Assembly: GCA_963846325.1 (NCBI GenBank)
Contig: CAWJVO010000009.1
Span: 251,083-315,082 of the forward strand
Source of the DNA: an uncultured bacterium
GTDB lineage: Bacteria; Krumholzibacteriota; Krumholzibacteriia; Krumholzibacteriales; Krumholzibacteriaceae
Direction of reading: 5' to 3'
Length of the DNA stretch: 64,000 nucleotides
Shown here: one piece after another, positions 17,592 to 45,480 of the stretch
Position numbering within the stretch: position 1 is the stretch's first letter
How the letters are laid out: every line of letters starts with the position of its first letter
Position numbers and translations under genes: made by a program
The notes under the pieces: model-generated
The model's database searches: none
What the model was told of the DNA's origin: nothing
What the model saw: only the letters and a program-made list of their open reading frames with translations

Positions 17592-18887
17592 TCATCTCGT
17601 CAATCCCAGCCTCCTGAGCGTCTCTTCCCCCCGATCGCTCCCTTTCTCGTAGCCGTACCATCCGTCGGCGATCCTGCCCCGGATATCTATGATGTAGTTG
17701 AGCGGCAACGCGCTCAGTCCCGTCGCCGTCCGGTATTTGCCGTGAAACACCTCCCGCGCCGCGGCCGTCGTATCGACGACGTTCGGGAACCGTATCGACT
17801 CCTCGCGAAGAAATTCCTCCGCCGGCTCCCTGCCGTCCGCGAAGTTGAAGCCGAGCACGACGAGCCCCTCTCCCGCGTATTTGTCCTGAAGGCCCTGCAG
17901 ATGGGGAAGCTCCTTGCGGCACGGCAGGCAGCTGAGCCGCCAGAACGAGAGCCAGACTACTTTGCCGCGATGCTCCGACAGCCGGAATCGCGAGCCGTCG
18001 AGAAGTACGAGATCGAAATCGGGCGCTTCGCTCCCCGGTTTCAAGAGACCGTCGTCGAGCGATTGCAGCCGGTACTCCTCCCATCCGGGGGGAGGCTTCC
18101 ACTTGAAAATGTCCTTCGAAATCGCGCCGTCGACGACGACGTCGCGCCACCGCTCGCGCACGACGATATCGCGCTTTCCTCTCACGGTTTCCTCGAGCAT
18201 CCGGGGCAGGCGGTCGCGTCTCGCGATCCAGAACACCCTCGTCCGCAGGCCCTTCAGATAGCTCGCCTCGACGATATCGCACACTTCGCCGTCCGCGTTG
18301 ACCGAGCCGCCGCTCCTCACGCTTTCGAGAAGCGCGTCCATGAGATCGGGACTTCCGTGGAAGATGCTCGGATCGAGGATCGTCATCGACATCCCGGTGC
18401 CGAGAACGCTCGTTTCGCGCGCGATCGAGTGATCGCCTTTCCGCGCGTCCTTCCGGAGATACGAACTCCCGACGCCCCGCGCGTTCGACGCGGAATCGCT
18501 CTCGTGGATATAGGGTCTTCCGTCCGGCCAATAGATCCACATCTGCCGGCCGTCGAGGACGATGACGCCCGTTTTCGTCCCGTCCTCGCTCTTCGATTCG
18601 AGCCGCGCGTAGTTGGGCTTCGCGAGCGAAAGCCGATAGAGCGAGCGGCCGATATCCTTTCCGCCGGTCTCCCGGACGTACTCGCTCTCGAAGGAAAGCG
18701 AGCGCGCCTCCCGCATCGCCGCGTGCATGCCCCGGTAGATCGCGAGCGCCGCGGCGTCCCCCCGCACGGCGACGCCGGATCCTCGCCCGCTCGGCGCCGC
18801 TCCGAAAGCGGAGAACGCCGCGAGCGCCGAAAGAAGGCCCGCGACGAGCGCCGAGACGTTCCCGAACCCCTTCATACGAGTCCCCAT
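17592..18887 (-). CDS. TlpA/ResA-like thiol-disulfide oxidoreductase with N-terminal LolA-like domain
   Basis: A signal peptide (MKGFGNVSALVAGLLSALAAFSA) is present. The C-terminal thioredoxin fold has a CxxC site (WLSFWRLSCLPCRKELPHL). Confidence 0.7.
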   Translation of the reverse strand: MGTRMKGFGNVSALVAGLLSALAAFSAFGAAPSGRGSGVAVRGDAAALAIYRGMHAAMREARSLSFESEYVRETGGKDIGRSLYRLSLAKPNYARLESKSEDGTKTGVIVLDGRQMWIYWPDGRPYIHESDSASNARGVGSSYLRKDARKGDHSIARETSVLGTGMSMTILDPSIFHGSPDLMDALLESVRSGGSVNADGEVCDIVEASYLKGLRTRVFWIARRDRLPRMLEETVRGKRDIVVRERWRDVVVDGAISKDIFKWKPPPGWEEYRLQSLDDGLLKPGSEAPDFDLVLLDGSRFRLSEHRGKVVWLSFWRLSCLPCRKELPHLQGLQDKYAGEGLVVLGFNFADGREPAEEFLREESIRFPNVVDTTAAAREVFHGKYRTATGLSALPLNYIIDIRGRIADGWYGYEKGSDRGEETLRRLGLTR

Positions 18888-21019
18888 GCCTTCCTCAATA
18901 TCCATTCGATTCCGAGGAGCAGGACGATGCCCGCGAGAATCGCGGCGTTTCCGCGAACCTCCCGGGTATCCCTCCGTTCGACGCGCCGATCGGAGAGATT
19001 CAATCGCCGGGGGAGCGAGTCGAGACCGGCGCCCTCGAGATATGAGCCGCCCGTGTCCCTCGCGATCCTTTCGAGGAGGGAGGCATTCCGCGACGGGTCG
19101 AGGAGCTCGACCGATACGCCCGCGACGGAGAAGGAGGCCGCCGCCGAGATTCCGCTCCCGGAACCGCTCGTTTCCGAAACGGTCACGGCGTAATCGCCGG
19201 GGGGCAGCGGATCGAGCGCCGCGCGGTAGTACCCCCGCCGCTTCGGATCGGGCTCGAAGGCGACGGTGCTCACGGAAACGTCGCGGCCCTCCCCTTTTCT
19301 TCGCACCTCTCCCCGTATCCCTTCGGGAGGGCGCCTGCTCCCGATATACGCGCCGAGCTTCACGCGATCTCCGGTGCGATAGACGGTCCGGTCCGGATCG
19401 ACCGCGAGCGCGGGCGCGCCCGCGCCTTCGGCAAGGCTCTGCACGAGCCCGCCGAAAAACGATTCGTATACCTTCCGCCCCTCCTCTCCGGCGAGCTTCC
19501 ATCTCCAGAGAGGAAAACCGAGAACGGCGCCCGAGAGCCCTTCGCCGGACCGCCCGAGGACGAGAAAGGGCGTCCTCGCTCCGCGATCCTCGAGAACGAG
19601 CGGTATCCGCGATCCCGAAGCCGCCGCGAGTCCCGCGATCCTCGCCGTGAGCGGCGGCATGGCGTCGAGACCTCCGTCCTCGGCGAGGCTCGAAACGATC
19701 GCGTCGCCGGCTCCCTCCGCCGAAACCCGGGCGAAGCCCTCCGCGTACTCGATCCTCGGACCGGATGTGCGCCTGAGGCCCAATACCGGCTGAAGCAGAT
19801 CGAACGACACCCCCCTCGCGAGGGGGGAATTCTCGTCCGCGACGAAGAGAACGCTTCCGCCCGCCTTGACGAACGCGTCGAGAGCCTCCGCGTTCGGCCG
19901 CGCGTCGAAGAGCTTCGCGTCGTCGGAGACGATCACGAGATCGTACCTCCCGATCCCCGCCGCGCCCGCGGCGAACGTCCATGGCGCGTTCCCGGGATCG
20001 ACGGCGAAACCCCCGCCCGCCTTCCATGAAACGGTTTCGACTTCGAGCCGTTTCGAGCCCTTGACGAGATCCCGGACGAACGTCATGTTCCAGTCGGGAT
20101 ATTGATCGATATAGAGAATCCGCACCTTGTCCTTGAGGACGTCGAGCCTGAACGATTCGACGTTGTTTTCCCGGTGCTCCTCCCCCGCGAGGGGCAGCGC
20201 CTCCACCGAGAGCCGGCGCTCCCCTTCGGCGTCCGCCGCATAGTCGAGGGTGACGCCGATTATCTCGTCGTCCTTCTTCACCGTCAGATTCGCGCTGTCC
20301 TTGATCCGTTCCCCCTCGAGAAGGCGCACGACGATCGTCGCGCCCTTGAAACCCGCGGCGCGGATAACCGCCTCGACGGGGACGGTCGTTCCGCGGTAGC
20401 CGACGCGGTCCGCCGCGATTTCCTCGATGGAGACGTCGGCCGCGGCGATCGTATCGCCGAACCCGACCGCATGGACCGGCGCCGCGACGGGCTCGCCCGA
20501 GGAGACCATTCCGCGCGTGACCCGGCCGTCCGTGAGGATCACGATTGCGGCGGGATTCCGGGAACGGTACCTTCTCTGCACGGCTCCGAGAGCCCCCCAA
20601 ATGTCCGTGCCCTCCCCGTCGGCCCTGACCGCGCTGTCCGCGCGGAGCGGATCGCTCGAAAGCGCGTCCGCGAAGGGCACGACCTCGACCTCCGCTTTCG
20701 CGCTCTCGAGAGCGGCGCGAAACCGCGCGAGGCGCCCGAGGGCGTCGTCGAATCTCGATTTTCCCGACGAATCCCTGATTTCCATGCTGCGGGAGCGATC
20801 GAGAAGAACGAGCACGAGCGGTTTTCTGATCTCGACCCTTTTCGAGATGAACACGGGATTGACGAGAAGAAGAGCGAGGAGAGCGAACGCCCCGATCCTC
20901 ATCGCGGCGAGGAGCGCGCGACGAACGAAGGGAAGGGGCGGGAACGTCCTTCGATACAGAATGAACGTGAGCGCCGCGAGCGCCGCGGCGACCGGTATTT
21001 TCCAGGGCTCGAGATGCAT
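18872..21019 (-). CDS. BatA-like membrane protein with von Willebrand factor A domain
   Basis: Two N-terminal TM helices are followed by a vWA MIDAS-like motif (VLVLLDRSRSMEI...ILTDGR). A C-terminal TM is present (ILAGIVLLLGIEWIL). The start is taken at the internal Met MHLEPWKIPVAAALAAL. Confidence 0.65.
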   Translation of the reverse strand: MHLEPWKIPVAAALAALTFILYRRTFPPLPFVRRALLAAMRIGAFALLALLLVNPVFISKRVEIRKPLVLVLLDRSRSMEIRDSSGKSRFDDALGRLARFRAALESAKAEVEVVPFADALSSDPLRADSAVRADGEGTDIWGALGAVQRRYRSRNPAAIVILTDGRVTRGMVSSGEPVAAPVHAVGFGDTIAAADVSIEEIAADRVGYRGTTVPVEAVIRAAGFKGATIVVRLLEGERIKDSANLTVKKDDEIIGVTLDYAADAEGERRLSVEALPLAGEEHRENNVESFRLDVLKDKVRILYIDQYPDWNMTFVRDLVKGSKRLEVETVSWKAGGGFAVDPGNAPWTFAAGAAGIGRYDLVIVSDDAKLFDARPNAEALDAFVKAGGSVLFVADENSPLARGVSFDLLQPVLGLRRTSGPRIEYAEGFARVSAEGAGDAIVSSLAEDGGLDAMPPLTARIAGLAAASGSRIPLVLEDRGARTPFLVLGRSGEGLSGAVLGFPLWRWKLAGEEGRKVYESFFGGLVQSLAEGAGAPALAVDPDRTVYRTGDRVKLGAYIGSRRPPEGIRGEVRRKGEGRDVSVSTVAFEPDPKRRGYYRAALDPLPPGDYAVTVSETSGSGSGISAAASFSVAGVSVELLDPSRNASLLERIARDTGGSYLEGAGLDSLPRRLNLSDRRVERRDTREVRGNAAILAGIVLLLGIEWILRKAWGLV

Positions 21020-21163
21020 CGGCTTCTCCCTCGCGCGCGGCCGTCGATGCATGCTAGCAGAGAGAGGAGCCGGCGTCAAAATCGAAAGACCGATTCGCAG
21101 CCCGGGGCGGGCGAATAGTGAACGTCCGGGGACGGCGCGGCGCACCGGCGGGAAGAGAGAGAG

Positions 21164-21622
21164 CTATTCGGTCTTGTGCCCCGGCGAGGTCACGACCCGG
21201 GCGCCTTTGCCGTCCGAAGCCGGATTTTCGCCGGAATCGACGGACTTCGCTCCGGCGTCCCCCGAGGCCTTCCGGTAGCTCTTCACGGCCTCGTCGACCG
21301 TATCGAAGCTCTGGAGAATGGTCTGGAACTCGAGCAGCTCGAAAACTTCGTAGACGTCGCCGATCATCGCCGCGAGCCTCAGATCGCCGCCGTTCTCTCG
21401 AATCGACTTGATCTCGCTGATGAATATGCCCCAGCCGGCCGAACTGATGTAGTTCACGCCGCCGAGGTCTATGACGATATTGTAGCGGCCCTTCTTGAGA
21501 AGCCTCTTCATGCTCTCTTCGAGCTCGGCCGATGTGGTAGTATCCACGTACCCCTGAACGGACAGCACCGACACATCCGCGTTCTCCTCGGGTCTCGAAA
21601 AAGATACGTTGATCCCTTCCAT
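21164..21622 (-). CDS. STAS-domain anti-sigma-factor antagonist (SpoIIAA/RsbV-like)
   Basis: The STAS phospho-serine motif is present (IVIDLGGVNYISSAGWGIFISE). Confidence 0.8.
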   Translation of the reverse strand: MEGINVSFSRPEENADVSVLSVQGYVDTTTSAELEESMKRLLKKGRYNIVIDLGGVNYISSAGWGIFISEIKSIRENGGDLRLAAMIGDVYEVFELLEFQTILQSFDTVDEAVKSYRKASGDAGAKSVDSGENPASDGKGARVVTSPGHKTE

Positions 21623-21649: not shown

Positions 21650-22022
21650 TCAATCCTGAATCCTTGTATTCTGATGCAAAGCGAAGGCGGCGAGCGCCTC
21701 TTCCTTCGAATTATACGGCGTCAGGAGCGTATTGAACTCGAGAAGATCGAATACCTCCCGCACGTCGACGTGCATCGACGCGAGCTTGATGTCCCCGTTC
21801 CGCTGCCTGATTCCCTTGATCTCCCCGACGAAAATGCCCCATCCCGCGGAGCTGATGTATTCCACGTCGCCGAGATCGGCGACGATCCGCACGCTGTTCG
21901 ACGAAACGAGATCGTTGAACTTGTCCTCGAGGAACTGCGCCGTGCCCGAGTCGACGATCCCGCGCAATTTCAGGACGACGACGTTATCAACGAAATCTTC
22001 ATCTATAACGAGCTTGTCCATA
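21650..22022 (-). CDS. STAS-domain anti-sigma-factor antagonist (second stand-alone copy)
   Basis: The motif IVADLGDVEYISSAGWGIFVGE is present. The likely start is MDKLVIDEDF. Confidence 0.8.
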
Positions 22023-22066
22023 AATCTGCCGGTCCTCTCCTGTGCCCACCCCGATACTAGCAAACT

Positions 22067-23185: not shown

Positions 23186-23236
23186 TGTGCCTTCTTTCGG
23201 GCGAGGCGCCCTTCCGCGCGCGGGCGGGAGCGGACG

Positions 23237-24012
23237 CTAGAGACCCGGCGCCGCTTCCACGACATCCTCATGCGAACGTTCGAGACCGAGGATTTCCTCG
23301 GTGAGATGATAATAATCGAACGCGCCCCGCGAAAGCGGCGCGTGCTCGAATACCGTCTTGTTCTGGCCGGGCGCCTCGCGGATCGCGGCGTTCATCCGTA
23401 TGATCGTCGTGAAGATCCGCTCCCCGAAGCGCTCGCGCAGATCGCCGAGCATCTGGTGCGACAGCCGGACGCGGGAATCGTAGAACGTGGGAAGCAGCCT
23501 GAACGATATGGGCTTCCGGCTGTTGAGAGTCTGGATCTCCTCGATGATCCCCGCCGTTTGCTCCGCGCCCGCCCGCGAGAGGTAATCCATGGAGACCGGA
23601 ATGATGACCTCGTCGCAATAGGCCAGCGCGTTGATGTTGATGAGATTGAGGGACGGAGAGCAGTCGCATATCACGTAGTCGCATCCCTTGAGGTGCTTGA
23701 GCGAGTCCGCCAGCCGGCGCTCGCGGTGTTCCCGCGCCCCGAGCTTGAGCTCGACTTCCGCGAGCTTGCGCCCCCCCGAGTCGATGAAGAAGAGATTGTC
23801 GCGAACCTGGAGGATGTCGACCTCGCCCGACGTCAGAAGATCGGCGAGCCCCCGGGGACTCTCGACGCCGAAGGTGACCGCGACGCTCCTCTGCGGATCG
23901 CAATCGATGAGCAGGATGCGCCGCCCGGACAGCGAGAGGCCGTGGGCGAGGCTGACCGCCGTCGTGGTCTTGCCCGTCCCCCCTTCATCGTCATGATCGC
24001 GTACCGCTTCAT
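23237..24012 (-). CDS. ParA/MinD-like P-loop ATPase, apparently frameshifted at a G6 run in the Walker-A codons
   Basis: The ATG at 24012 gives MKRYAIMTMKGG, after which the frame is lost. The -1 frame continues GGTGKTTTAVSLAHGLSLSGRRILLIDCDPQ...CDCSPSLNL and reaches 23237. One extra G in the C/G run at 23978-23983 would restore MKRYAIMTMKGGTGKTTT. Confidence 0.65.
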
Positions 24013-24016: not shown

Positions 24017-27000
24017 CTATTTCTTCCGGTGCTTCGGGTTCTGTTCCGACTCCGAGAGCTTCTTCCCGTATTCCTCCCACCCCAGCTTCTTGATGCGGCG
24101 ATCCTTGTCCTCGCGCACGTCCGTGCGCTGCTTGAAATCGATGAAGATGACCTTCTCCTCTTCCTTCACGGTCTTGAGCGGTTCGAGAGGAATGATGTCG
24201 GCCTTGCCGAGCAGCGCGGAAGCGAGGTCCTGCCCCGCATCCTCCCGTTCGGCCGGACCGCCGGAGACGGATTCTTCCTTTTTCGGGCGGCTCTTCGCCC
24301 CCGCCTGCGCTATCTTCTCCCGGCGCGCGGCCTCCCCGAGCTTCTTCGGAAGCCTGAGCTCCTCGAGCGCGCGCTCGAGCGTCCCGAAATGCGGAATGAG
24401 CGGCTCGAAGCCGAGATCCCTGAATATCTTGAGTATCGTCGAATTCATCCCCGCGAGCGCGAGCGCGCCTCCCGAGGCCCCCAGCTTCTGCATATACTTG
24501 ACGACGATGCCCCATCCGCTGCTGCTGATATATACCATATCGGACAGATCGAGCACAAGGTGAGCGGGATCCTCGGCGAGGCACTGCTCGAGCCTGCTCT
24601 CGAGCTCGTCGGAAGTCGAGGAATCGACCGCCCCGGCGATCGAGAACACGACGATTCCCTTCGGGCCTTCCTTCGCTTTCGCCACGCCGATGGCGAGTCC
24701 CGGTTCTTCGGGCTCCGCGCCGATCGATCCGCCGGAAACCGGCTGAACGGGCTTCCCGGCCTCCTCCGTATCGACCGCGTCTCCGGAGATCGCTCCGTCC
24801 GGCGACGGAACCTTGAAATTCTCGATCGCTTCGCCGAGGACGCCGAACGACCGCATGATGGAATCGAATCCGAGCATGTGGAAGATGCTGTGCACCTCTT
24901 CATCCATGCCGAATATCTTGAAGTCTCCCCCGCGCGCCCGGATATCCTTTATTCTCGACGCGAAGACGCCCCACCCGCTCGAGCTCACGTATTCCACGCG
25001 CGACATATCGACGACGAGCTTCACGATGCCCCGGTCGACGAAGCTGTCCAGAACCGAGCGGAGCTTGACGCAGCTCACCGTGTCGATGACGCCGTCGAGG
25101 GAGAGGATCGTGATCTCGCCGCGATCGCCGACGGTTCCCGCTTCGATCTTGAGGGCCGTCCAGGGAGCCTCTTCGTCCTGAACGTCGAGAATCTCGGGAG
25201 CTCCGGGCGATTCGGAAGCCTGTCTGACCTCGACGGGCTTGAGCGCCGCCCGCCGCCGCGACACCTCTTCGAGCTTGTTCCGGCGCTCGACGAGCGGCAA
25301 GGCGACGTATTCGACCGCCGCTTCGACGTCCGCGAACTGCATGATGATCTCCTGGAAGCCGAGCAGCTCGTAGATATCGTACACTTCGCTCGTCATGCCG
25401 GCGAGGACGACGTCTCCGTCCCCCTCCCTGAGAGATTTCACCCTTCCCGTGAATATCCCCCAACCGCCGCTCGAAATATAGGTCACGTCCTTGAGGTCGA
25501 CGATGATCTTCCGATAGCCGTACTCGTAGACGCTTTCGAGGATACCTTCGAGCTCTCCCGCCGAAGAGGAATCGAGATGCCCCTTGACCCGGAGAACGAC
25601 GATCCCTCCCTCGAGCTCCTCCGAAGCGACCTCCACGGCGCGCCCCTCGCCCGACCCGAACTCCGGGTCCCGCGCGATACTCCGGTCGCGCGCGCGCGTG
25701 GGCACGGGTTTCGCCGGGCGGGCCGCCCGAGCAGGGCGCGGAGCGGGCGCTTCCTCGATCTCCGGTTCCCCGGGAATCGAAGCGATCCCTTCTCCGGCGG
25801 CGAGCTTGAACGCGTCCGGCTCCGCGCGCACCTGCGCGGCCAGCAGCGCCTTGAACTGCTCGTCGGTGATGATCTTGTTGCGGCGGAGGTACTCGAGCCT
25901 CAGATCGTACGTGTTGAGACGGATGCGTTTGAGCTCGTCGTAGACGATCGCCTGGGTGAGGCGCTCCTTCTCCTCCCGCCCTTCGTTGAACAAGTCCGCG
26001 ATCTTCTTCGCGCCGTACTTCGGATTCTTCCTGATGATCTCGAGTATGCCCTTGCGCTGCTCGAGGCTCACCCGTTTGATGTCGTCCTCTTTTCGAAGCG
26101 TCTTGTCCTGAAGCCCCCGGTCGCCCATCTCGACGACGCGCTTCTTGTAGCGATAATAGGTCGACGGCGAAACCTTCATCATGCGGCACGCCTCGGCGAC
26201 GGGGATCCCCTGGATCTCGACAAGATCGAGGAGCTTCTTGCGGATGCCGAAGAGCACCTCGTCCGCCATGAGCTTTTCCTTGATCGCGACGACGGTGATG
26301 TCGTCGTTCTGCGGCATGTCTCCGGTGAACTCCTTGATCGCCGCGCTCAGCCGATCGATGAACTCCTGCGGGGTGAGCTTTCCGCTCGCCTTGATGAGCT
26401 GAAGGAGACGCTCCTCGCCGTACTGAGCTCGATCGACGTTCATCGCTTCCGTGACGCCGTCGGTGTAGATGACGAGCATGTCGTCTTTTTTCAGCTTGAT
26501 CTTCTCGACGTCGATCGAGCGGCGAAACAGCGTATCGTCGGGAAGGCTGATCCCGACGGGGAATCCACGGGGATTGAGGAAATAGGTCTCGTCCGTCTCC
26601 GCGCGGTACAGAATCATCGGATTGTGCCCCGCGCTCGCGTAGCTGATGATCCGGTTCTTCGAGTCGAGAATCGAATAGAAGATCGTGACGAACATTCCCT
26701 TCTTCATATCCTCCGTCACGAAGTCGTTCATGCGGGCCATGACCTCGGCGGCGGAGTAGTTGCCGCGCGCTTCCATTCTGAGCGCGGTTCGTATCATCGT
26801 CATGACGAGCGATCCGGGCACCCCCTTGCCGGAGACGTCCGCCACGACGACGCCGAGCGTATCGTCGTCGACTTTCACGAAGTCGTAGTAATCCCCGCCG
26901 ACCTCCTTCGCGGCCTTGTAGTAGCTCGCGATGTCGTAGCCGCCGATCTCGGGCACCTTCTTCGGCAGGAGGGTGTGCTGGATCTCCTGGGCGACCTGCA

Positions 27001-28279
27001 TCTCCTTCTGGAGGCGCTCCTGCTCGACGACGTTCTTCTGCGCCGCGCGGAACTTCGAGGTGATTTCGTTGAACGCCCGCGCGATCTCGCCGATCTCCTT
27101 GGGGCCTTCGATCTTGAGCTCGTCGTTGAGCGATCCCTCGCCGATCGCCCGCACGCCGTCGGTGAGCGCCTGGATAGGCCGGACGAAAACCGCGATGAGA
27201 AGGTACAGGAGCGCGACGCCCGCGGCGAACACGCCGATGAGAAGCAGCGTCATCATCGGCCTCGGATCGACCAAATCCTCGACGACCGCGGCGATCGAGA
27301 CACCCATGACGATCCTGCCGATCGGTTCGGCGTTGGCCCGCTGCGTCCCCGCCCGGTACACGGGCTGATGAAACTCCCTGACCGCGCCGACTCCCGGCAT
27401 TTGAACGGTCCGCGACAGGCCTCCCTGCGCGAGCGCTTCCGTTCCGGCCGGAATGTCGTACGCCGCGAGGAGCTCGTCGACGTCGCTCGTGGCGACGACG
27501 ATCCCGTCGCCGTCGACGAGCCTGATATATTTCGTTTCGGGATACTTTTTGAGCTGCTTGATGAAGGTTTCGTTCAGGCGCATGCGCTCGACCGAGAACT
27601 GATCCTCGCCGAGAGCGTTTTCGCTCGCCGCGGCGATATTCTCGGCGACGGACTTGCGCTGGAGCCACACCTGCGCGTACCGCCCGCGAACCTCCTGCGT
27701 CTGTCGATAGAACAGGATCGACCAGAGAAATACGATGAGCCCGAGAAGACCGAGCGTCGCGCGAAGCGCGAACTTGAAGCGGAGCGTCGAAGTCCACCGG
27801 GGCTTCATGAGCGAGGCGAAGAGCGGTCTCTGGGCGACCGAAACGGCCGAGCTCTTCGCCATGTAGAGCCGGTTGCCCCCCGGCGCGGCCGAATAGCTGA
27901 GCGTGTCCATGAGCCGGTTCATGAGGTAGATGCCGAGTCCGCCCTTTTTCCCGATTTCGACGTAGAGATCGAGATCCGGCTCTTTCACTTTCGACCAGTC
28001 GAACGGCTCCCCTCTGTCGAAGATGTTGATCTCGATCTTCCCCGGCTCGGCCTGGACGTCGATCCTGACGTCCCCCACCTTGTCCCGGTACGCGTGCTTG
28101 ATGATGTTCGTGCACGCCTCGTCCACGGCGAGCTTCGTGTTGTTGGTCTCGCTCTTCGAGAAGCCCGCGCGATCGCAGACATCGGCGATGAAGTCCCTGA
28201 CCTCGCTCAGGTTGTTCTCGTCGGCGGGCACCTCGAGATGGAACGTTTCGCGATCGGTGAGGAGACCTTTCTTCTTCAC
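24017..28279 (-). CDS. 1420-aa multidomain membrane signalling protein: RsbW-type kinase + 2TM sensor + HAMP + PP2C phosphatase + HTH pair + 3 STAS domains
   Basis: A single uninterrupted ORF with a GTG start that overlaps the upstream stop as GTGA. See the domain sub-features below. An alternative Arg-rich frame and the long antisense ORF were rejected. Confidence 0.85.
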   Translation of the reverse strand: MKKKGLLTDRETFHLEVPADENNLSEVRDFIADVCDRAGFSKSETNNTKLAVDEACTNIIKHAYRDKVGDVRIDVQAEPGKIEINIFDRGEPFDWSKVKEPDLDLYVEIGKKGGLGIYLMNRLMDTLSYSAAPGGNRLYMAKSSAVSVAQRPLFASLMKPRWTSTLRFKFALRATLGLLGLIVFLWSILFYRQTQEVRGRYAQVWLQRKSVAENIAAASENALGEDQFSVERMRLNETFIKQLKKYPETKYIRLVDGDGIVVATSDVDELLAAYDIPAGTEALAQGGLSRTVQMPGVGAVREFHQPVYRAGTQRANAEPIGRIVMGVSIAAVVEDLVDPRPMMTLLLIGVFAAGVALLYLLIAVFVRPIQALTDGVRAIGEGSLNDELKIEGPKEIGEIARAFNEITSKFRAAQKNVVEQERLQKEMQVAQEIQHTLLPKKVPEIGGYDIASYYKAAKEVGGDYYDFVKVDDDTLGVVVADVSGKGVPGSLVMTMIRTALRMEARGNYSAAEVMARMNDFVTEDMKKGMFVTIFYSILDSKNRIISYASAGHNPMILYRAETDETYFLNPRGFPVGISLPDDTLFRRSIDVEKIKLKKDDMLVIYTDGVTEAMNVDRAQYGEERLLQLIKASGKLTPQEFIDRLSAAIKEFTGDMPQNDDITVVAIKEKLMADEVLFGIRKKLLDLVEIQGIPVAEACRMMKVSPSTYYRYKKRVVEMGDRGLQDKTLRKEDDIKRVSLEQRKGILEIIRKNPKYGAKKIADLFNEGREEKERLTQAIVYDELKRIRLNTYDLRLEYLRRNKIITDEQFKALLAAQVRAEPDAFKLAAGEGIASIPGEPEIEEAPAPRPARAARPAKPVPTRARDRSIARDPEFGSGEGRAVEVASEELEGGIVVLRVKGHLDSSSAGELEGILESVYEYGYRKIIVDLKDVTYISSGGWGIFTGRVKSLREGDGDVVLAGMTSEVYDIYELLGFQEIIMQFADVEAAVEYVALPLVERRNKLEEVSRRRAALKPVEVRQASESPGAPEILDVQDEEAPWTALKIEAGTVGDRGEITILSLDGVIDTVSCVKLRSVLDSFVDRGIVKLVVDMSRVEYVSSSGWGVFASRIKDIRARGGDFKIFGMDEEVHSIFHMLGFDSIMRSFGVLGEAIENFKVPSPDGAISGDAVDTEEAGKPVQPVSGGSIGAEPEEPGLAIGVAKAKEGPKGIVVFSIAGAVDSSTSDELESRLEQCLAEDPAHLVLDLSDMVYISSSGWGIVVKYMQKLGASGGALALAGMNSTILKIFRDLGFEPLIPHFGTLERALEELRLPKKLGEAARREKIAQAGAKSRPKKEESVSGGPAEREDAGQDLASALLGKADIIPLEPLKTVKEEEKVIFIDFKQRTDVREDKDRRIKKLGWEEYGKKLSESEQNPKHRKK
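24365..25624 (-). other. domains: three tandem STAS (anti-sigma antagonist) domains
   Basis: The phospho-Ser motifs are VTYISSGGWGIF, VEYVSSSGWGVF and MVYISSSGWGIV. Each lies in a module of about 105 aa. They are separated by Pro/Ala/Glu-rich linkers. Confidence 0.75.
25880..26233 (-). other. domain: transposase-type helix-turn-helix pair (HTH_28 / IS630-Tnp-like)
   Basis: The motif IPVAEACRMMKVSPSTYYRYKKRV is followed by RKGILEIIRKNPKYGAKKIADLFNEG. It resembles the N-terminal DNA-binding modules of IS630/IS3-family transposases. No catalytic domain is present. Confidence 0.45.
26276..26992 (-). other. domain: PP2C-type Ser/Thr phosphatase (SpoIIE/RsbU-like)
   Basis: The SpoIIE-like motifs are GGDYYDF, ADVSGKGVPGSLVM, ASAGHNP and YTDGVTEA. 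It covers aa 430-668. Confidence 0.75.
27020..27760 (-). other. domain: TM1 - extracytoplasmic sensor region - TM2 - HAMP
   Basis: TM1 is LGLLGLIVFLWSILFY. A hydrophilic segment of about 150 aa follows. TM2 is MMTLLLIGVFAAGVALLYLLIAVFV. HAMP-like heptads then follow (IQALTDGVRAIGEGSLNDELKIEG...IARAFNEIT). Confidence 0.6.
27860..28222 (-). other. domain: HATPase_c anti-sigma-factor Ser/Thr kinase (RsbW/SpoIIAB-like)
   Basis: The N-box is EACTNIIKHAY and the G-boxes are DRGEPFD and GGLGIYLM. It covers aa 20-140 of the 24017-28279 protein. Confidence 0.75.
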
Positions 28280-30184: not shown

Positions 30185-33100
30185 TCACTTTGCGACGGCG
30201 ATCTTGAAGAGCGCCGATTGCGAGCCCGCCTCGACCTTGCACATGTACACGCCGTTTCTCACGAGCTCTCCCCGGTCGTTTCGGCCGTTCCACGGGATCT
30301 CGTGCCATGTCCCTTCCGGCGCGCCCGTGCCTCCGGCGTCTCCCGAGCCGATGCTCCTGGTCCAGACGAGCCGGCCGCCGAGGTCGTAGATCTTGATCGA
30401 AACGGCCGAGTTCTTCTTCAGGAAATAGCAGATCTTCGTCGGCTCGGTCCCCGCCCTGAACGGATTCGGATAGTTGTGGACGTATTCGTCGAAACGCGCG
30501 CTCATGATCGAGAGCGGACCGCTCCGGAAATGCCCCGCGATGTCGCCTCCGTCGAGCTCCAGCGCGACTCCGATCCGCGTCCCCGATTCGCTGATGGAGA
30601 CGACGACGTCCGCGCTGCGCCCGATCTCGAACCTGATCTCCCCGGCGAGCGCCCTCGCGGCGATGTCGGCCGCGAGCAGCAGCGTGTCGGCGCTGCCGGG
30701 CGCCAGGGTGAATCCGTGTCCGACGACGATCGGAACGGGATTGCGGCCCGCGACCGCGGCCGAATACTCCGATCCGCCGACCGCGCACGAGAGCGAAGCG
30801 ACCGACCTGGCCGGATCCGCGGCGGGACTGCCCCGTCCGTCCTCGATCGCCACGTAGAGCGTGTCGAGACCGATGGTGAAACCGGAAGCGTTTTTCAGGA
30901 CGATCCGCATCACGGGAACGTCCTGAGCGCCCTGAGGAACGACGAACGGCGGTATCGAATCCGCGCTCGACGCGTTCGACATCAGAACGGAGCCCGCCTG
31001 CGTCTGAACGGGGATGAACGCCGCTCCGGTCGATATCTCGCACGGGAGGTTCGTATTGACGTCGGTCGCGTACGGCTCGATGAGCCTCACCTCGATGTTT
31101 CCCGGGGAGGTCGGCGACGCGGGCGCCCTGACGTTCCATACGACGCTCTGTCCCGGGTAGAACGGCTTGCGATACGTCTCCGGGGCACCGTCGAGCGCAT
31201 ATCCCTGCCCGGCGGGTAGCACGATCTCCATCCGCGCTCCCGTCGTATCCAGCGCCGCTTCTCCCGATCTCGCCGCGGTCGCCTCGATCGTGAACGGCAG
31301 ACTGATCGACACGGATCCGTCGAGAGCCTCGTCCGGTCCCGAGATTCGAGCGCTCATGGCGAGCGCCGGCCTGATCAGCACGTGAACGGGAAAGACGACG
31401 CGGCACGTCCCGACGACGCGGCCGGAGTTGACGTCCTTCCCGCCCGCGCGAACGACGAGCGTGTCGGCGTCGACATGGCCCATCGGAGCCCTCATGATCC
31501 AATCGACCGTCACCTGCGTCCCCGTCCCCCTGCCGATGAACCGGGTCCGGTCGCCGATGACGGAGAATCCCGCCGGCGCCGAGATTTCGATCCATACCGA
31601 GTCGGTGCTCGCCGAGGGGCTGAAAATCGCCCGGGCCGTGAAATCCTGCTCGGTCGAGAGCGTGCCGTCGACGGCTCCCTGCGGAGCGGCGATCGAAATC
31701 GCGCATCCGCTCACGCCTCCCGCTTCCACGGTCCGGAGCGCCACGGCCGATTCGATCAGGCGGACGGCCGCCGGAAGGGCCGTATTGACGCCGTCGGGGA
31801 TCCGGCTGATGCGCGCTTTCACGGTGTCCTGCGACGGCGCCGCGGGCGCGACGAGCGTCCAGGAGACGGCGCTGCCGGTTCCGAGACGCTTCACGAGCGG
31901 ATCCGCCGAGTTCGCGAGGAGCACGGACGGCGGGAGCGCGAGAGTCACCTCTCCCGTCGTATCGACGAGCGCCTGCCCTTCGTTGGAGACGGCGGCGGTG
32001 ACGACGAAGGTCTGGCCGACCGAGAGCGTGTCGTCGAGAGCGCCCGCGGGGGCCGTGACCGAGACGCCGCACGAGAGGAGCGCGGGGAGCTCGATGCGGA
32101 GATTCTCTATCGACTCCGCCGCCTGGGCCGGATAGACGCGCTCGCCCGTGTTCACCGAAACCGCGTAGACGATCGACGAGGTCAATATCTCGCTCCCGGG
32201 CGCCGAAGCGGCGACGATCGAGAATGCGAAATCCCTTTCCGACTTCGAGGGGACGGACACGAGCGAATCGCCGACGATCGCGGTTCGCGTGGCGCCGTTC
32301 GAGACGAGGTGCACGTTGACGCTGTCGAGATCGTCCCCCCCCGTATTCTCGACGCGGACGGTCACGCCGAACGCCTGATCGGTATCGACGACCGACGTGT
32401 TGGGGAAGAGCGCGTTATTCGGCGCGTCGCTCGTCACCGAAACGATCCGCAGACCGGACGGCGCCTTGACGCGCACCGATCCCGAGCCGGCCGCGGAGCC
32501 AGGCTCGCGAAGCGGATCGTTCATATCCGTCCATCCGGCTCCGGCGTCGATCGCGACCATGCCCGTATCGCCGCCGGTCGAGGAGATGCGATAGATGAGC
32601 GAATCCGAGGCTCCCCCGGCGAGTGAGAAGGAGCTCGAGCCCGAGCCGAGCGTATCGGGAGCGATGACGAAATAATCGTAACGCCTCGTGCCGAGGAGCG
32701 AGAACGCAAGATCCGAAGCCGCCGGAGCGCGGAGCGCGAGAGGCGCCTCTCCCCTGTTCGCGATGGAGACGCTTACCGTCCAGTCCGCGGCCTGGCTTGC
32801 GTTCACCTCGCCCTGCGAAGGTCTGACGGAGAATATCTCGAGCGCCGCGAGGCTCTGTATGATCGCGCGCGTCGTGTCGTCGAGAGCCGGATTGACGCGG
32901 ACGAGATCGCTCTCGCGTGAGTTGCCGTCGAGAGCGCCCCTGATATGCGCCCTGAACGTTTCGAGCCCGCTCGCGGTCCCCGCCGTGATCCTGAAGGTGT
33001 CGGACTCCGCCGCCGCGCCGCTCAACGCGCCCAGGACGAGGAGGGTATCTTCGATGCCGGAAGAGCCGGAGTGTTCGAGCGCCACCCGAATACTCTCAGC

Positions 33101-36100
33101 CGGCGCCTCTCCTTCATTAATTACTTCAAATGATACTTGGAACCGTTGATCAATATTGATATAAGGAGATCGCGGAGCTTCATTCTCAACCTGCGCGATT
33201 CTGATCTGCGCCGGGGCCTGAACGCGCATAGCGCCCGAACCCGATCCCGCCTGCCTCGTGTCGAAAGCGCTGTATATCGAGCTGTTGCTCTCGATGAATC
33301 CCGCGTGCGCGTGCAGGACGATATCCGCGCCCGACGGAATATCGGGCGTCGGCGATACGGAGAATACGAGGTGCTTGCAGCTTCCTCCCTCGAGGACGAG
33401 GCCTCCTTCCGAGAACGCCGCGGGCGCGGCCTGCGAGAAGGGCAGCCTTCCGTCGTAGAACACGTACATGCTGTCCGTGACCAGCGTGAGATCGGCCTCG
33501 CCGCCGTTGCACACCTCGAGCGTGATTTCCCAGGGCGTCGCCTGACCCGAGGTCACCGCGGTTCTCTCCGGAGTCGTCCGCGCGATCGCCGGCGAACCCG
33601 GATTCTGGATGGCCGCGTAGCTGAAACCACCGTCGAATGTGTCGTCGACGATCGTGAGCCCGCTGTTGATGTCGACAGCCGTCACCTTTCCGTTCACGAG
33701 CGCGAGCCCGCTCGTCGAGCCCGTGGGCGTGACGACGAAGACGAGGCTGTCGACGGCGCCCCCGGCGAGCGTGTCGGTCCCGGATCCCTCGAGGCGATCG
33801 GGATAGTCGATCCCGTATTCGTACGTCCGGTCGCCGATCCCGACGAGATTGAAGTTGATGAAGGTCTTCGCCGCGTTGAAATCGATCACGACGGAGGCCT
33901 CGCCGTTATTCCTGAGCACCATGCGCGCCTGCCATGCGGCGCTCTGGGACCGGGTCACCGATTGCGGCACCACGATGCGGTTGATGCTGAGCTGCGGAGC
34001 CTGTTCGACGCTCACCGAATCGCTCAGCGCTCCGAGGACCGCGGAGAACGGATTGCCGTTCTCGGTGCCTTCGAGATGCAGGGACACGGGGAACGTCACG
34101 TGCGCGATGGCGGTATCGACAGGCGCGTTTCTGAAGAACAGGGTGATTTCTCCGCCGCTCGCGAGAACATGCTCCGAGACCGGAGAAAGGGTCGTCCTGA
34201 AGGTGTCGCCGTCGGCGTCACCGAAGCTCAGGAACACCTTTCCGGGATCGAGAACGAGCGTCGAGCGACTCAGCGCGTCGCTCGAGATTCGCGCTTCGAA
34301 CGAGACGCTCGCCCCGCTGCTCACGACGGCCGGCGTGAGGCTGCCGGCCACGTAACGCGGATCGGCACGGAGATCGAAGGAAACGCTGTCGTCGCTCGAC
34401 GGGGCGTACCGCTCCGCATGGAGCGTTCGTCCGCTGTTGTTCTCCGACGCGAGTATCGCCCCCGTAAGAACCTGCCTTCCGGGGAGGATCGAGCCCGTCG
34501 TGCGCACGACGAACGGGAGGATCGCGGTCGAACCGCCGCGGAGCGTCCGTCCGCCCCCCGGAATCTCCGCGGGATTCTCGATCGAGAAACCCGTGCCCTC
34601 GGGAACCGCGACCCACGTCGAGTCGACGCGGTCGAGAAGGAGCGTGGCGTCCGATTCGCCCGTGTTGCGGACTTCCATCTCGATCGTCCAGTCGCGTTCC
34701 TGGGCGATCGTCACCGGATCCTGCAGGGAGGCGAACCCGACGACTTCGAGATCGGCCTCCGATTGGACGAGCACGTCTCCATGAATCCCCGAGGCGCCGC
34801 TCGAAACCGTGAAAGCTCTCTCGCTGTTGATTTCGACGGCGCGTACCGTCGAGGTGATCGAGCAGACGCCGGGAACGGAGCCTGTCCGATCTATGCGATA
34901 GCGAAGCGTATCGGTCGAGCCCCCCTCGACCACGACGCCTCCGCCCGCGAGCTCCGAGGGGCTCGCGACCAGAAAATCGCCCGACGTCGAGAAAGCGAGG
35001 AAGGAGTTCGATTCGCTGAGGTCGAGAGCGACGTCCGATTGTCCGGTGTTCGCGAGAACGACATCCACCGTCCAGACCCGGCGCTGGTAGGCCGTCACGG
35101 TATCCGCCGAAGGGACGATCGCGGCGACGGCGAGGTCCGCCGGGGTCTGAACGAGATAGCTTCCTTTACCGCCGAACTCGGTCGTCGCGATGAGAACGGC
35201 GCCGCTGTTCATATCTCTGCCCCATATCTTCGATTCGACGACGATCGTCCCGGTCGTCATCGGTCCCGCGACGTTGTCCCTGAATCGCTCGGCGATGATC
35301 TTGTACGACCCCCCGTTCAACGTGTCGACGCCGGGATTGAGATTGAGCGCCGTGAGGACGCACTCGGAGGTGACTTCCGTCGAGCCCGCGTAGAGCCTGA
35401 CCTTGAGGCTGTCGAGACGAACCGCCGCGCCGCCGTTATTATCGACGCGGATCGAAGCGAACCACTCCTTCGCCTGATCCGCCGTGATGCTGTCCGACGG
35501 AAACACCGTCGTGCTCGCGATCGCGAGCTGCGGCGGGCTCTGGACCGCGATCGCGTCCGTCGGCGAGAGGTTCGTCGAGAAAGGCAAACCGTTTTCCGTT
35601 CCCTTGACCCGCACCGCGGGCAGATAGCTCCCCGTCGGCAAGGCGTCCGGAATCGTCACCGCGTTGAAATAGAGCGTTCTCGCGCCGGGCGCGACGGTTG
35701 TCCCGCGCGAACCGTCGAGCTTCGCCGTATAGACGACCGGGCCCGAAGAGAACGTGATCCAGGTCGAATCGGGATCGCAGGCGACCGTCGCCCCTCCCGA
35801 GTTGTCGATTCCGACTTCGAATGCGACCGCGCTCCGCTTGCTCACCGGCGTCGGCGCGATGCTGCCGGGACGATAGGCGAGCTGCGCCGGATCCACCACG
35901 ACGATCGCGTCTCCGAGAACGAGCGTTTGGCTGAACGATGCGCCGTTCTCGGTGCCACGGAGCCGGACCGAAACGGGCCAGCTCCCGGCATCCATGGCGA
36001 GCGGCACGGCCGCGGGCGGAAAGACGATATTCGTCACCGCGCCGCCGGGAAGCGCGCCTTCCGCGCCGAGGGCGACCCGCAGCGTATCGACTCCGTCGGT

Positions 36101-39100
36101 GAACGAGAGCCGCGTGCCGGAGCCGCTGAGAATGACCGCCGCCTGGCCGTCGTTTCTGAGAGACACGGAGAATCCGTGGCTTTGCCCCTTCGAAACGACG
36201 CCGGGGTTCAGCGAACCGGGCACATACGCGATCGAGGCGGCCGACTGCACGAAGATCGGAGCCGCGTTCGGATACGCGGACGCATCCTGGGCCTGCGAGC
36301 CGTCCACCGAAGCGGTGACGGAGGCGTCGATGGTATCGGCGCCGAGAGGCGAGTTCGCGAGCACGTACATGCTCCGCCGGTAATCCCGCTCCGCGCCGGC
36401 CGGAAGATTATCGGGAAGGGCCGGATTCCATGTCCCGGTCACGCCGAAATAGCCGTGCTCGTAGCTGGGCACGATATCGTTCACGGAGACGAACGATCCG
36501 CCGCCGTTCTTGATCCGCACGTCGACCTCGAAGGTGTCCCCTCTGCTCACGATCGACGGAGCGGTGACCCGCATGATTTCGATATCGGAGACGGAGACGC
36601 TGTTCGAACCGGCGCTGAATTCCACCTGGTACGGCGAGCCGTACACGTCGGTTCCGACGAGCCTGACACGCGGCGTGTACGTTCCGCCGAGCATGCCCGC
36701 GGGGACTGCCGTCGTCTCGAAATCGAGCGTGTCCGTCGCCGATCCTCCCAGAAGGACCGGCGCGGCCAGGTGCGCGTCGTAGATATTCGAAGCGCTGTCC
36801 GCGAAGGAAATGAAGGTCTGCGTCGTCAGGTTCAGCCCCGTCGCGCTGCCGTTCGCGGCCGAGCACCTGAAGGTCGCCGGCTGCGTCGGGGTGAGGTAGC
36901 GGGGCGCGAGATATCCCGCGTACGCGCAGGCCGGGGGCGGCGCGAACGCGACGTTGGCCGTGCCGGCGGCGCTCCCCGCCAGGCTCTGGAACTGTATCGC
37001 GGAGAGCCCCGGCGTCGTGCCCGATCGGATGAAAACGGATACGGCCCCGCTCGATTCGGTCTGCCGCTCGACGGTGAGAGGCGTCGACGGATCCTTGTCC
37101 TCGCTCCCCACGGATCCGAGACTCGGCGTCACCCTCACGAGGCTGCCCGTCGCGACGATATTGCCGTACGCGTCGCGGACCGGGTTCGTCGTGATCGTGG
37201 AAACGCTCGACCCGTTCGCCGTTATCGTGCCGGGCACGATCGAGAAGAACGTGATGGCGCCGCTCGGAACCGCCGGTCTCACCGTGATCGTGTCGCTCGA
37301 GCTGAGCGCCCCTCCGGCGAGCGTCTGGGCCCGCAGGACGAGCTTCTCCGCCCTGTTATCGTACACGGTCACCGCCGCGCGGCCGTTCGTCAGTGTCACG
37401 GGATTCACCGAGAATACGGCCGAGCCGTCGCTCGCGAGATTCACGCGGCTCGTGTCGTCCTGAGTCGCTTCGTTGCCGTCGAGATCGTAGGCGATGAGCT
37501 GGAGCGCAAAGCTCTGACCGGCCGTCTTCGAATAACCGTCGGGCAGGACGTCGAATCGCGCGATCGAGCCGGCGGCCGTTCCGACGGTGAACAGCACACG
37601 CTCGAGCGCCGGCGGATTCGCGTCCAGAATCGAGGCGGAAACCGAATTGACCCCGGAATGCGTATCGGTCGTGAGACTGCAGACGGCGGCGCCCGTCGCG
37701 TCGGTCAGAACGAGCCCGTCTCCCGGCGCTCCCGTTCCGTCCCAGAGGCTCGGGCTTCCGCCGAGGTTGCTTGTGATGACGAAGCGGACGATCTCGGACG
37801 GCGCCGCGTTCCCGTATTCGTCGCTCACGCGCGCCCTGAGGCCGATCTTCGAACCGACGGGGACGCCGAGCGTGTCTCCCCGCACCTCGACGATCCGATA
37901 CGCGGGTCCGGGCCGAATGGTGATGAGATCGCTCCACTCCGAGAGGCTGTCCCCCGCGAGCGACAGCACGCGAATGCGATTGAAACCCGCCGTCGAATCG
38001 GATGCGGAGAATGACGAACGTCCCGCGGCCAGCGTCATCACGCCCGGAACGAACGCCATCGTCGTGCGCCGCGCGACGCAGCGCAGCTGCGAGCTCGAAT
38101 CGGTATCGATCAGGTTGCCGTATTCGTCGTACGCCGCGACGTTCCCCGTGAACGACTCGCCCGCCTGGAAAGAAACCCCCGGCAGCTCGAGCGATACCCG
38201 GGCGATCGCGCTCTTCGGCACGGTCGTCACGGTGAAGCTCTGCGTCTCGAGCCCTTCCGGATTCGCGTCGAGAATCGACGCGCGCACACGGTTCGTGCCC
38301 TGCAGCGTGTCGGTCCTGAACCAGAGCGAGGCGTTCCCGTTTCCGTCGGTGACGGCCTGCGGAGCCGCGAGCCGGCCGCCTCCCTCCTGCACGGTGAAGA
38401 ACACCGTCTGGCCGTTCACCGCGTTTCCGTAGCTATCGGCGACCCTCACGCGGAGCCTCAGCGAATCCCCGACCTGCACGCCGGTGCTGTCCCCGCCGAG
38501 CTTCACGAGCTGGTAGGCGGCGGCGTTGTCGACGGCCACGACGCCGCTGTAGCCCTTGATTGGATTGGCGGCGCTCGCCACCTCGACGCGGATCGCTTCC
38601 GCGACGGTGTACCGGAACCCATTCCCGGTGAACAATCCATTGACGAGGCTCCCGTTCGCCACCGAGAGCGCGCCCGACGCGACCAGGGAGCTGTCCGCGG
38701 CCTGAACGGCCCGGAAATCGATCGTATATCCCGCGGTCGTGACCCTGTTGTCGAAACGGTCCCTCGCTTCCGCCGAGACCGTGAAATCGGCGCCCGCCGT
38801 CGCGTTCGACGGCGCGACGACGACGTATGAGCTCACCGTGTCGTTCGGCACGATCGTGATGCTGAACTGATCCGGGGAGAGCGCTTCGACCTTGTCCCTG
38901 ACCTGAATCGGCCAGATTCCCTGCTTCGATCCCCTCCCGTAGAGCGTGACGACGCCGCCCGCGAGATCGGCTTCCGCGACCGGCGCGCCGAAATTCGTGA
39001 GGCTGAACGTGAATCCCCCCGCCACCGGCGGTTCGAGAACGATCCGGCTCGCGTTCGTGAGGTCTCGGTTTCCGTTCCCGTCGACCGCCTCGATCCTGAA

Positions 39101-45066: not shown

Positions 45067-45480
45067 CCTGAATCACCTGAAAGCGGCAAATGAAGGGCAT
45101 CGCGCAAGCTATGTGCCAATAGCATTTTTCAATTGGCATACGCCGCCGAAAATCCTTTCGCGCAGGAACGGGTCGCTCAATTCGAAAAACGGCACCCAGG
45201 ACGGGAATCGCTCCCGTTTCATAATATATTGGTATTATGACAAATACACGCGTCGTTCCGGACTTGTTCGCACGCCGTGCCGACGACATCGGCAACTCTG
45301 CCCCGATCGCGACGATAGGGCGGACCCGAACCCGCGATTCGCGATCGCCTGATCGGAACCAAAATAGCACACGCCGAAGCAAATTGCAATAACTAGAAAG
45401 TCTTTAACTCTTTGTATTAACGTTCGTTAGTAGACACTTCGGAAACGAGCCCCGAAAGAAACCTCGGCATCCCCGAAAAC
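45067..45480. promoter_or_regulatory. intergenic region upstream of the giant adhesin gene with a lower-GC tract (candidate promoter/leader)
   Basis: It is the only sizeable non-coding gap in the surface-protein array, and it is AT-richer (aaatagcacacgccgaagcaaattgcaataactagaaagtctttaactctttgtattaacg). The 45038-45382 ORF overlapping it was rejected. Confidence 0.35.

Follow-up and report, generated by a model that had tools for sequence, protein, structure and literature searches.

A bipartite helix-turn-helix (HTH) module of transposase type lies in the middle of a 1420-residue membrane signalling protein, here called the megaprotein, which is encoded on the minus strand of a 64,000-nucleotide stretch of DNA from an uncultured member of the Krumholzibacteriaceae (GenBank assembly GCA_963846325.1, contig CAWJVO010000009.1, positions 251,083 to 315,082; hereafter the window). 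From its sequence, the module is a conserved domain, so far unnoticed, in a signalling protein of phylum-wide occurrence. Its homology and its conservation are solid; what it does we infer, and the chances appear about even that it serves a membrane-anchored partner switch as its DNA-binding output. The protein family is characteristic of, and conserved in, Krumholzibacteriota and Latescibacterota, phyla for which we know of no cultured representatives. Since it is tied to a giant adhesin of the type IX secretion system (T9SS), the family points to regulation at the cell surface in these phyla.

The original prediction placed a pair of HTH motifs at window positions 25880-26233, residues 683-800 of the megaprotein, and the peptides it quoted are present in that open reading frame (ORF); the actual extent of the module is slightly larger (Table 1). 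When residues 670-830 were scanned alone against Pfam, HTH_23 (32.2 bits, cut-off 24.6) and HTH_28 (25.5 bits, cut-off 25) were above their cut-offs and HTH_32 (29.7 bits, cut-off 33.7) was below. In the scan of the whole protein HTH_23 covered residues 680-723 and HTH_32 residues 707-768. As HTH_32 fell short, the homology of the second subdomain (HTH2) is drawn from the NCBIfam IS481 profile and from alignment to IS481 transposases. The best NCBIfam match was to the IS481-family transposase profile (NF033577), covering profile positions 2-115 of 284 with E=8.5e-16 and 58 bits, followed by weaker matches to IS3 (E=1.9e-8) and IS630 (E=1.7e-7). Thus the transposase character of the HTH pair, as first proposed, is borne out by the profile searches, but the family originally named, IS630/IS3, needs amendment: the closest is IS481, which is related to IS3, and IS630 is weaker. 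Both HTH motifs are present as predicted; the segment represents, however, the entire pre-catalytic N-terminus of a transposase and not the HTHs alone.

This was seen from both directions. The module aligned collinearly with two IS481 transposases, beginning at their very N-terminus and ending where the catalytic domain starts, and in a tblastn search against plasmids annotated IS481 transposases covered approximately 87-93% of it at approximately 30-32% identity. In the reverse search, three full-length IS481-type transposases matched the window solely at this site, through their residues ~5-164, and the match reached window position 25769, beyond HTH2. The recognition helix of the first subdomain (HTH1) has the pattern S..(T)..YR.K in common with active transposases. 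The module resembles the IS481 transposase N-terminus (NF033577; HTH_23, HTH_28, HTH_32 and LZ_Tnp_IS481) in its two HTHs, its collinearity and its identity of about 30%. It differs in lacking an rve/DDE domain, in its mid-protein position, in being fixed across phyla and in a more acidic HTH2 helix. No rve/DDE catalytic domain was found in the megaprotein by Pfam or anywhere in the 64-kb window by tblastn with transposases, as the original prediction had stated for the surroundings, and no second copy of the module was found in the window. The megaprotein is not an IS481 transposase, and it scored 53-58 bits against that model, far under the cut-off of 224 bits.

A structural model of the module, computed with AlphaFold2 from a five-sequence alignment, had a mean predicted local distance difference test score (pLDDT) of 86 and a predicted template modelling score (pTM) of 0.53. 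It begins with a leading helix and a helix-turn-helix (module residues 3-19, 25-32 and 36-49), passes through a low-confidence loop into a second three-helix unit (residues 70-82, 88-96 and 107-116) and ends with two more helices. The leading helix follows the last strand of the PP2C phosphatase directly, with no linker, and the HTH1 recognition helix reads SPSTYYRYKKR. HTH2 has the conserved pattern P..YGAK(R/K)I ... (I/V)Y.EL.R..LNT. As modelled, the segment is globular and consists of two three-helix subdomains, which excludes the coiled-coil linker that had been named as the alternative. The module contains 34 Lys and Arg against 24 Asp and Glu residues, a balance compatible with DNA binding. 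A search of PDB sequences with the module profile revealed no solved relative, the best match being a TetR-like HTH at E=0.007. Mimicry of a sigma factor was also considered and discarded, as the match to Sigma70_r4_2 was insignificant (E=0.051).

The distribution of the family was surveyed in two ways. A genome scan limited to one genome per species gave 102 related stretches, of which 80 were kept as loci. Almost all of these are metagenome-assembled genomes (MAGs) labelled Krumholzibacteriota, Krumholzibacteriia or Latescibacterota, with a few from Ignavibacteria, Gemmatimonadota and FCPU426; the window segment itself was 99% identical to a Krumholzibacteriota MAG. The module occupied the same position in all 80 loci, and wherever enough sequence was available it lay downstream of the PP2C domain in the same gene. 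Among proteins, there were at least 120 full-length orthologue clusters (90% identity) of 1380-1575 residues with the same Pfam content. In NCBI and JGI these orthologues are named 'anti-sigma factor antagonist', 'STAS domain-containing protein' or 'SpoIIE family protein phosphatase', and the HTH has been overlooked. Of the best 150 representatives of a wider profile search, described below, 82 carried the module right after PP2C, and 42 of the 82 were complete with an N-terminal kinase.

Conservation was expressed as mean identity to the window protein across 112 orthologues. PP2C was highest among the regions compared (86%), followed by the kinase and HTH1, which were equal at 76%; 25 of the 54 columns of HTH1 were at least 95% conserved. 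STAS1 stood at 72% and STAS3, the STAS domain with the lowest value, at 52%, and HTH2 at 65% was similar to the STAS domains. The sensor region was the least conserved folded part (44%). The helices after the HTHs (residues 801-818) were weakly conserved at 36%, and the Pro/Ala-rich linker that follows the module fell to 20%. In 57 PP2C-linked modules, reaching down to 23% identity, the best-kept stretch was the HTH1 recognition helix with the consensus vSp.tYYrykkr, followed by P.yGakri and iY.EL.R..LnT, both in HTH2. Judged from these alignments, the module is an old, long-fixed domain under strong purifying selection. An internal start at Met671, which would yield a separate HTH-STAS protein, was entertained and rejected, as Met671 is unconserved in the wider family.

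The conserved core of the family consists of the RsbW-like kinase, the sensor, PP2C and the HTH pair, and the C-terminus is variable. Some members carry three STAS domains there, others TPR repeats, joined in one protein by a BTAD-like match, and in still others Pfam recognises nothing. Members that lack the sensor, the fused STAS domains or the neighbouring ParA gene nevertheless keep the kinase-PP2C-HTH core (P0079, P0099 and loci L076-L082). Thus P0079 (578 residues) is a soluble kinase-PP2C-HTH protein with no transmembrane (TM) segments and no HAMP domain, and in P0099 (1665 residues, locus L085) TPR repeats replace the STAS domains. In two long-contig MAG assemblies, L001 (ERZ25039514) and L002 (ERZ25039502), the megaprotein gene was called as 4-6 fragments. 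These breaks are probably frameshift errors and not real gene decay. A word-indexed search for the module returned only 4 short 'HTH+SpoIIE' fragments because of such fragmented gene calls in L001 and L002.

The relatives of the module outside this family bear on its origin. An exhaustive profile search of 1.84 billion representative proteins gave 975 relatives at E<=1e-3 and 199 at E<=1e-10. The closest non-orthologous ones were tandem modules on GT2 glycosyltransferases (E~1e-19 to 1e-13), and no true transposase bearing an rve domain ranked ahead of P0141, at E=1.2e-13. The GT2 proteins are a second, unrelated host-protein setting for the module. Like the megaprotein module, the GT2-linked modules have no transposase catalytic domain and are fused to membrane-associated proteins; they differ in forming an N-terminal tandem pair and in having no kinase, PP2C or STAS domain. 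The idea of a domesticated transposase module fits a long-fixed domain constrained by purifying selection. As to the direction of descent, domestication from a transposase is likely and is what we infer; the non-transposase, GT2-linked modules nevertheless score closer than the true transposases.

The tandem IS481-type modules form the N-terminus of cellulose- or chitin-synthase-like GT2 proteins of 720-2950 residues (P0058, P0144, P0100, P0076, P0083, P0109 and P0075), none of which has a transposase catalytic domain. P0150 has one module ahead of a GH26-like domain. P0053, a partial protein of 304 residues consisting of two modules alone, is the only tandem member with a named source, Candidatus Microgenomates.

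Partner switches are known to work by way of sigma factors or, less often, of non-sigma partners that are ill defined. By its domain content the megaprotein is of the partner-switching type, and the defining sigma partner was not found among the scanned genes of its cluster. The parts include a PP2C domain of the SpoIIE/RsbU class, a HATPase_c_2 kinase, and three fused and two free-standing STAS domains with a serine motif. By homology the parts for a working cycle of kinase, phosphatase and antagonist are all present and look intact. The motif Y(I/V)SS.GWG occurs in all five STAS domains of the cluster, and in the aligned orthologues it is nearly invariant in the fused three; it presumably aligns with the phosphorylated Ser58 of SpoIIAA. 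The HTH pair is read as the output because no sigma factor was found in the cluster, because the pair is the sole predicted nucleic-acid-binding element and because it always accompanies the kinase-PP2C core. Sensor (Cache-HAMP) and HTH pair share a single ORF, as in one-component regulators, and the order of Pfam domains supports the location first assigned to the pair, namely on the cytoplasmic side of a membrane sensor, after the phosphatase and ahead of the STAS domains.

The following sequence of events may be envisaged. Homology indicates that the PP2C phosphatase is controlled by a periplasmic Cache domain together with HAMP; PP2C and the RsbW-like kinase, from what is known of these families, would set the phosphorylation of the five STAS domains, three of them fused and two free. 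The unphosphorylated STAS would then bind the kinase domain, as extrapolated from RsbU/RsbW/RsbV, SpoIIE/AB/AA, Rv1364c and SypE/SypA. In these systems, phosphatase and kinase set the phosphorylation of the STAS protein, which engages the kinase in its unphosphorylated form (PMC7693655; PMC10120452). The HTH pair, fused directly to PP2C, would bind DNA at the membrane in one state of the switch, in the manner of ToxR/CadC-type regulators, and so would take the place of the sigma factor that partner switches normally control. A likely target would be the promoter or promoters of the operon for the giant T9SS adhesin and its PorV/PorQ-like partner. The complete scheme, a sigma-less switch in which a transposase-derived HTH is freed or blocked and envelope signals from the adhesin and its PorV/PorQ-like partner lead to promoter binding, is proposed tentatively and is given somewhat less than an even chance.

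Known single-chain systems come close in several respects. The top structural matches of the PP2C domain in Foldseek were the RsbU/RsbW domains of Rv1364c of Mycobacterium tuberculosis (3ke6, E=7.9e-13), followed by RssB, SpoIIE and SiaA. Rv1364c, like the megaprotein, is a single chain with sensor, PP2C, GHKL kinase and STAS, and as summarised in a paper that cites Greenstein 2009, it phosphorylates and dephosphorylates its own STAS domain (PMC7693655). It is soluble, however, has another domain order and one STAS domain, lacks an HTH and acts on SigF, whereas the megaprotein is membrane-anchored through Cache and HAMP and has an N-terminal kinase, the HTH pair and three STAS domains. In SypE of Vibrio fischeri an N-terminal serine kinase and a C-terminal PP2C domain surround a sensory module, as in the megaprotein, and SypA, the STAS protein with which it works, governs biofilm and surface traits and does not act on a known sigma factor (PMC10120452). 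SypE differs in its central receiver domain, in being soluble and in lacking both an HTH and fused STAS domains; the megaprotein has a central TM-Cache-TM-HAMP region, and its HTH pair and three STAS domains follow PP2C. Regulators of the ToxR/CadC type combine a periplasmic sensor and a cytoplasmic DNA-binding domain in one membrane protein, through an N-terminal winged-helix domain of OmpR type and with no kinase, phosphatase or STAS machinery. The megaprotein is like them in joining a sensor to a predicted DNA-binding module. Searches of the full text of open-access papers and preprints found none that described such an architecture, nor any partner-switching protein with an HTH of transposase type.

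If the DNA-binding role is correct, partner-switching systems would have a new class of output. A membrane protein that unites kinase, phosphatase, several antagonists and a DNA-binding module would then be a compact model of sigma-free switching. The use of transposase DNA-binding regions by their hosts is documented mainly in eukaryotes, and the megaprotein would provide a clear bacterial case of such a region recruited as a transcription-factor domain.

Several observations weigh against DNA binding as the output. The acidic residues of the HTH2 recognition helix (Y.EL.R) are conserved, and transposases are basic or neutral there; from the sequence, this could reflect a shift to a partner other than DNA. 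The best Foldseek matches of the module in the PDB were Pax paired domains, the N-termini of TnsB and the DNA-binding domain of SETMAR/Mos1, yet these similarities to DNA-binding domains were weak (E of 0.075 or worse) with a large root-mean-square deviation, which is attributed to the mobility of two subdomains on a flexible tether. The junction between PP2C and the module is linker-free, and the model of PP2C plus HTH reached a pTM of 0.74, a result that fits an appendage of the phosphatase equally well; this value is intermediate, and since no inter-domain error map accompanies it, the model does not tell a docked module from a free one. No DNA target or operator was found in the intergenic segments of the 80 loci or in the region upstream of the giant gene. 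Finally, the genome may encode a sigma factor for this switch outside the cluster.

As to DNA targets, few intergenic segments could be searched because the cluster is so tightly packed: stretches free of any ORF of 70 residues amounted to 30 segments, 2.8 kb in all, across the 80 loci. The spacers between the ParA and TPR genes had no shared palindrome, only lineage-specific promoter-like sequences. A scan of window positions 41400-42300 for promoters and terminators gave nothing. The real upstream region of the giant gene, about 460 bp of non-coding DNA at 45067-45530, had no Rfam match and contained one perfect 9-nt inverted repeat. No member of a sigma-factor family was present among the scanned genes of the window cluster or the called genes of L001, L002 and L085, and tblastn of the window with E. 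coli RpoE gave no match.

Two features of these segments may be recorded separately. The inverted repeat at 45304-45347 (CGATCGCGA, 26 nt, TCGCGATCG) is a single pair. A promoter-like TTGAC...TAnnAT is present in the ParA-TPR spacers of many relatives (L016-L046), equivalent to window positions 23186-23236, and suggests an internal promoter for the TPR-STAS-STAS-VWA genes.

The most serious competitor to DNA binding, which we regard as less likely, is that the HTH pair no longer binds DNA and has become a protein-protein module, either acting on PP2C in dimerisation or regulation, or offering a docking surface or pseudo-substrate for reversible binding by the kinase or STAS domains. Its direct attachment to PP2C favours such a role, with some 70 disordered residues separating it from STAS1 on the other side, and so do the higher pTM in the company of PP2C (0.74 against 0.53 for the module alone), the acidic HTH2 helix and the constant co-occurrence of kinase, PP2C and HTH, which extends to the soluble P0079. 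Yet conservation peaks at basic and aromatic positions in the recognition helix of HTH1 that active transposases also have, and the module has a net positive charge. The insignificant similarity to sigma-70 region 4 (E=0.051) also speaks against this role. Related modules occur, moreover, at the N-termini of GT2 glycosyltransferases that have neither kinase nor PP2C, which argues that the module has a function of its own.

It is improbable that the HTH pair is a nucleoid anchor, that is, a ParB-like partner of the Soj-like ParA which would position the signalling and adhesin-secretion complex along the cell. The Soj-like ATPase (1wcv, E=5.1e-39) is the next gene after that of the megaprotein in almost every locus long enough to show it, and the window cluster has a deviant Walker A ATPase of ParA type and no ParB. 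A conserved short motif ends the megaprotein just ahead of ParA, and some loci of the Latescibacterota type have an ORF of about 90 residues with a ParB-like basic peptide and a ribbon-helix-helix-like end. The module has no similarity to ParB, however; it is kept in L080, L081 and L085, where ParA is missing, and lineages with a small adaptor ORF of their own retain it, while the ParA of the window is frameshifted. A recent insertion sequence remnant, an assembly artefact or a chance HTH-like helical or coiled-coil linker, with no support beyond the transposase HTH families as best database matches, can be set aside, because at least 120 orthologue clusters and 80 genomes of several phyla share the module, in frame, at one fixed site, and because it is under strong purifying selection, has the GC content of the adjacent PP2C-coding DNA (0.58-0.61), is accompanied in the window by neither a catalytic domain nor a second copy, and gives a confident globular model with no coiled coil. 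Nor does it bear the hallmarks of a mobile element, being a single copy in a fixed syntenic position with native GC; terminal inverted repeats and flanking target duplications were not searched for.

Table 1. Features of the megaprotein and its gene cluster, with residue numbers of the megaprotein and positions in the window.
Feature	Residues	Window positions	Strand	Basis
Giant Big_1/Invasin_D3 surface protein, C-terminal T9SS type A sorting domain		30185-41641	-	Pfam Big_1 E=1.6e-102
PorV/PorQ-family outer-membrane beta-barrel with C-terminal TPR extension, 634 aa		28276-30180	-	NF033709 and Pfam TPR
Signalling megaprotein gene, 1420 aa		24017-28279	-	ORF; kinase, TM, Cache, TM, HAMP, PP2C, HTH pair, three STAS, C-terminal motif
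HATPase_c_2, RsbW/SpoIIAB-like serine kinase / anti-sigma-type	17-142	27854-28231	-	Pfam PF13581 E=4.7e-31
TM1, periplasmic single-Cache and TM2 (sensor)	~166-362	27194-27784	-	sCache_3_2 and sequence
HAMP	361-405	27065-27199	-	Pfam PF00672 E=1.6e-9
PP2C (SpoIIE-type) serine phosphatase	471-667	26279-26869	-	Pfam PF07228 E=1.1e-51
HTH module	672-818	25826-26266	-	Bipartite helix-turn-helix in the megaprotein
HTH subdomain 1	672-725	26105-26266	-	HTH_23 above cut-off; AlphaFold2 helices
Connector between HTH subdomains	726-737	26069-26104	-	Flexible; pLDDT <50 at module residues 59-65
HTH subdomain 2	738-800	25880-26068	-	Alignment to IS481 second HTH; HTH_32 sub-threshold
Post-HTH helices	801-818	25826-25879	-	Align with IS481 pre-catalytic region
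Pro/Ala-rich linker, module to STAS1	819-885	25625-25825	-	Composition of the translation
STAS domain 1, motif YISSGGWG	890-988	25316-25612	-	Pfam STAS and NCBIfam anti-sigma factor antagonist
STAS domain 2, motif YVSSSGWG	1053-1143	24851-25123	-	Pfam STAS and NCBIfam
STAS domain 3, motif YISSSGWG	1203-1304	24368-24673	-	Pfam STAS and NCBIfam
C-terminal motif DKD.(K/R)I(K/R)..GW.EYG.KL and basic tail	~1391-1408	24056-24109	-	Conservation among orthologues
Soj-like ParA/MinD-type ATPase		23237-24012	-	Pfam AAA_31, CbiA; downstream neighbour
TPR protein, 372 aa		22067-23185	-	Pfam TPR families; synteny
Two free-standing STAS genes		21650-22063 and 21164-21622	-	Pfam STAS; TIGR00377 E=2.4e-18; synteny
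Weak VWA-domain protein, 757 aa, last conserved cluster member		18872-21145	-	VWA_2 23.8 bits, cut-off 27; synteny

Within the megaprotein, the N-terminal kinase domain is cytoplasmic and also matched NCBIfam RsbW (E=6.8e-24, under the equivalog cut-off). The sCache_3_2 match covered residues 207-335 and scored 29.0 bits against a Pfam cut-off of 28.4; the two TM segments were read off the sequence as hydrophobic stretches. The C-terminal motif was kept in all 112 orthologues, its G, W, Y, G and L positions being at least 90% conserved, whereas the preceding 100 or so residues were unconserved. It resembles a short linear interaction motif and directly precedes the ParA gene.

The cluster is tightly packed on the minus strand, and its gene order is conserved across the 80 loci. 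A homologue of the PorV/PorQ-like protein (NF033709, 104.4 bits, cut-off 90) was the immediate upstream neighbour of the megaprotein wherever a locus reached far enough to show it, and in the window the stop codon of its gene overlaps the start codon of the megaprotein. A homologue of the giant protein was found upstream in 50 of the 52 loci that reach far enough. The T9SS sorting domain of the giant protein (window region 30185-30700) scored 29.8 bits against a TIGR04183 cut-off of 23. A giant T9SS cargo with an adjacent PorV/PorQ-like barrel is reminiscent of SprB/SprF and, by that analogy, may be a cargo with a dedicated shuttle. In the distant members L080, L081 and L085 ParA is missing, and the cluster is reduced to four genes, for the giant protein, an outer-membrane/TPR protein, the megaprotein and a single STAS protein.

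Elsewhere, with few exceptions among the loci that cover the downstream side, the ParA gene comes immediately after the megaprotein gene, and its product was closest to the Soj structure from Thermus. The copy in the window has a 1-nt deletion in the G-run of Walker A (23978-23983): the run is G6 in the window and G7 in the close relatives L003, L006 and L016 (AAG GGG GGG ACG, encoding KGGT), so that in the window the N-terminal MKRYAIMTMKGG is out of frame with TGKTTTAVS.... Relatives that do not have G7 keep the frame in another way. This frameshift could be a homopolymer error of the assembly or real slippage.

The extra ORF of about 90 residues between the ParA and TPR genes was seen in the Latescibacterota-type loci L043, L045, L061, L064 and L065 (at ~6800-7500 in L061); the window has a 51-bp gap at 23186-23236 in its place. 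Its N-terminal peptide, KKKSLGRDPFED, is basic and ParB-like, and its C-terminus, VRLTPSNLKHLD...SRNELIRVAITLL, resembles a ribbon-helix-helix. With 19.8 bits against an RHH_1 cut-off of 20.5 it falls just below the threshold, and it resembles an adaptor of the ParG type.

The giant gene is probably longer than its ORF in Table 1. Position 41641 was first taken as its start and 41642-42036 as a gap, a reading that was abandoned when the DNA there was found to consist of coding tandem repeats with frame breaks. The repeats, nearly identical and about 305 bp long, encode extra Ig-like domains, and the breaks fall at 41560-42120. The gene probably runs on through 42037-45066 to about 45066 and would encode roughly 4950 residues; the corresponding product at the related MAG locus L001 has 5346 residues.

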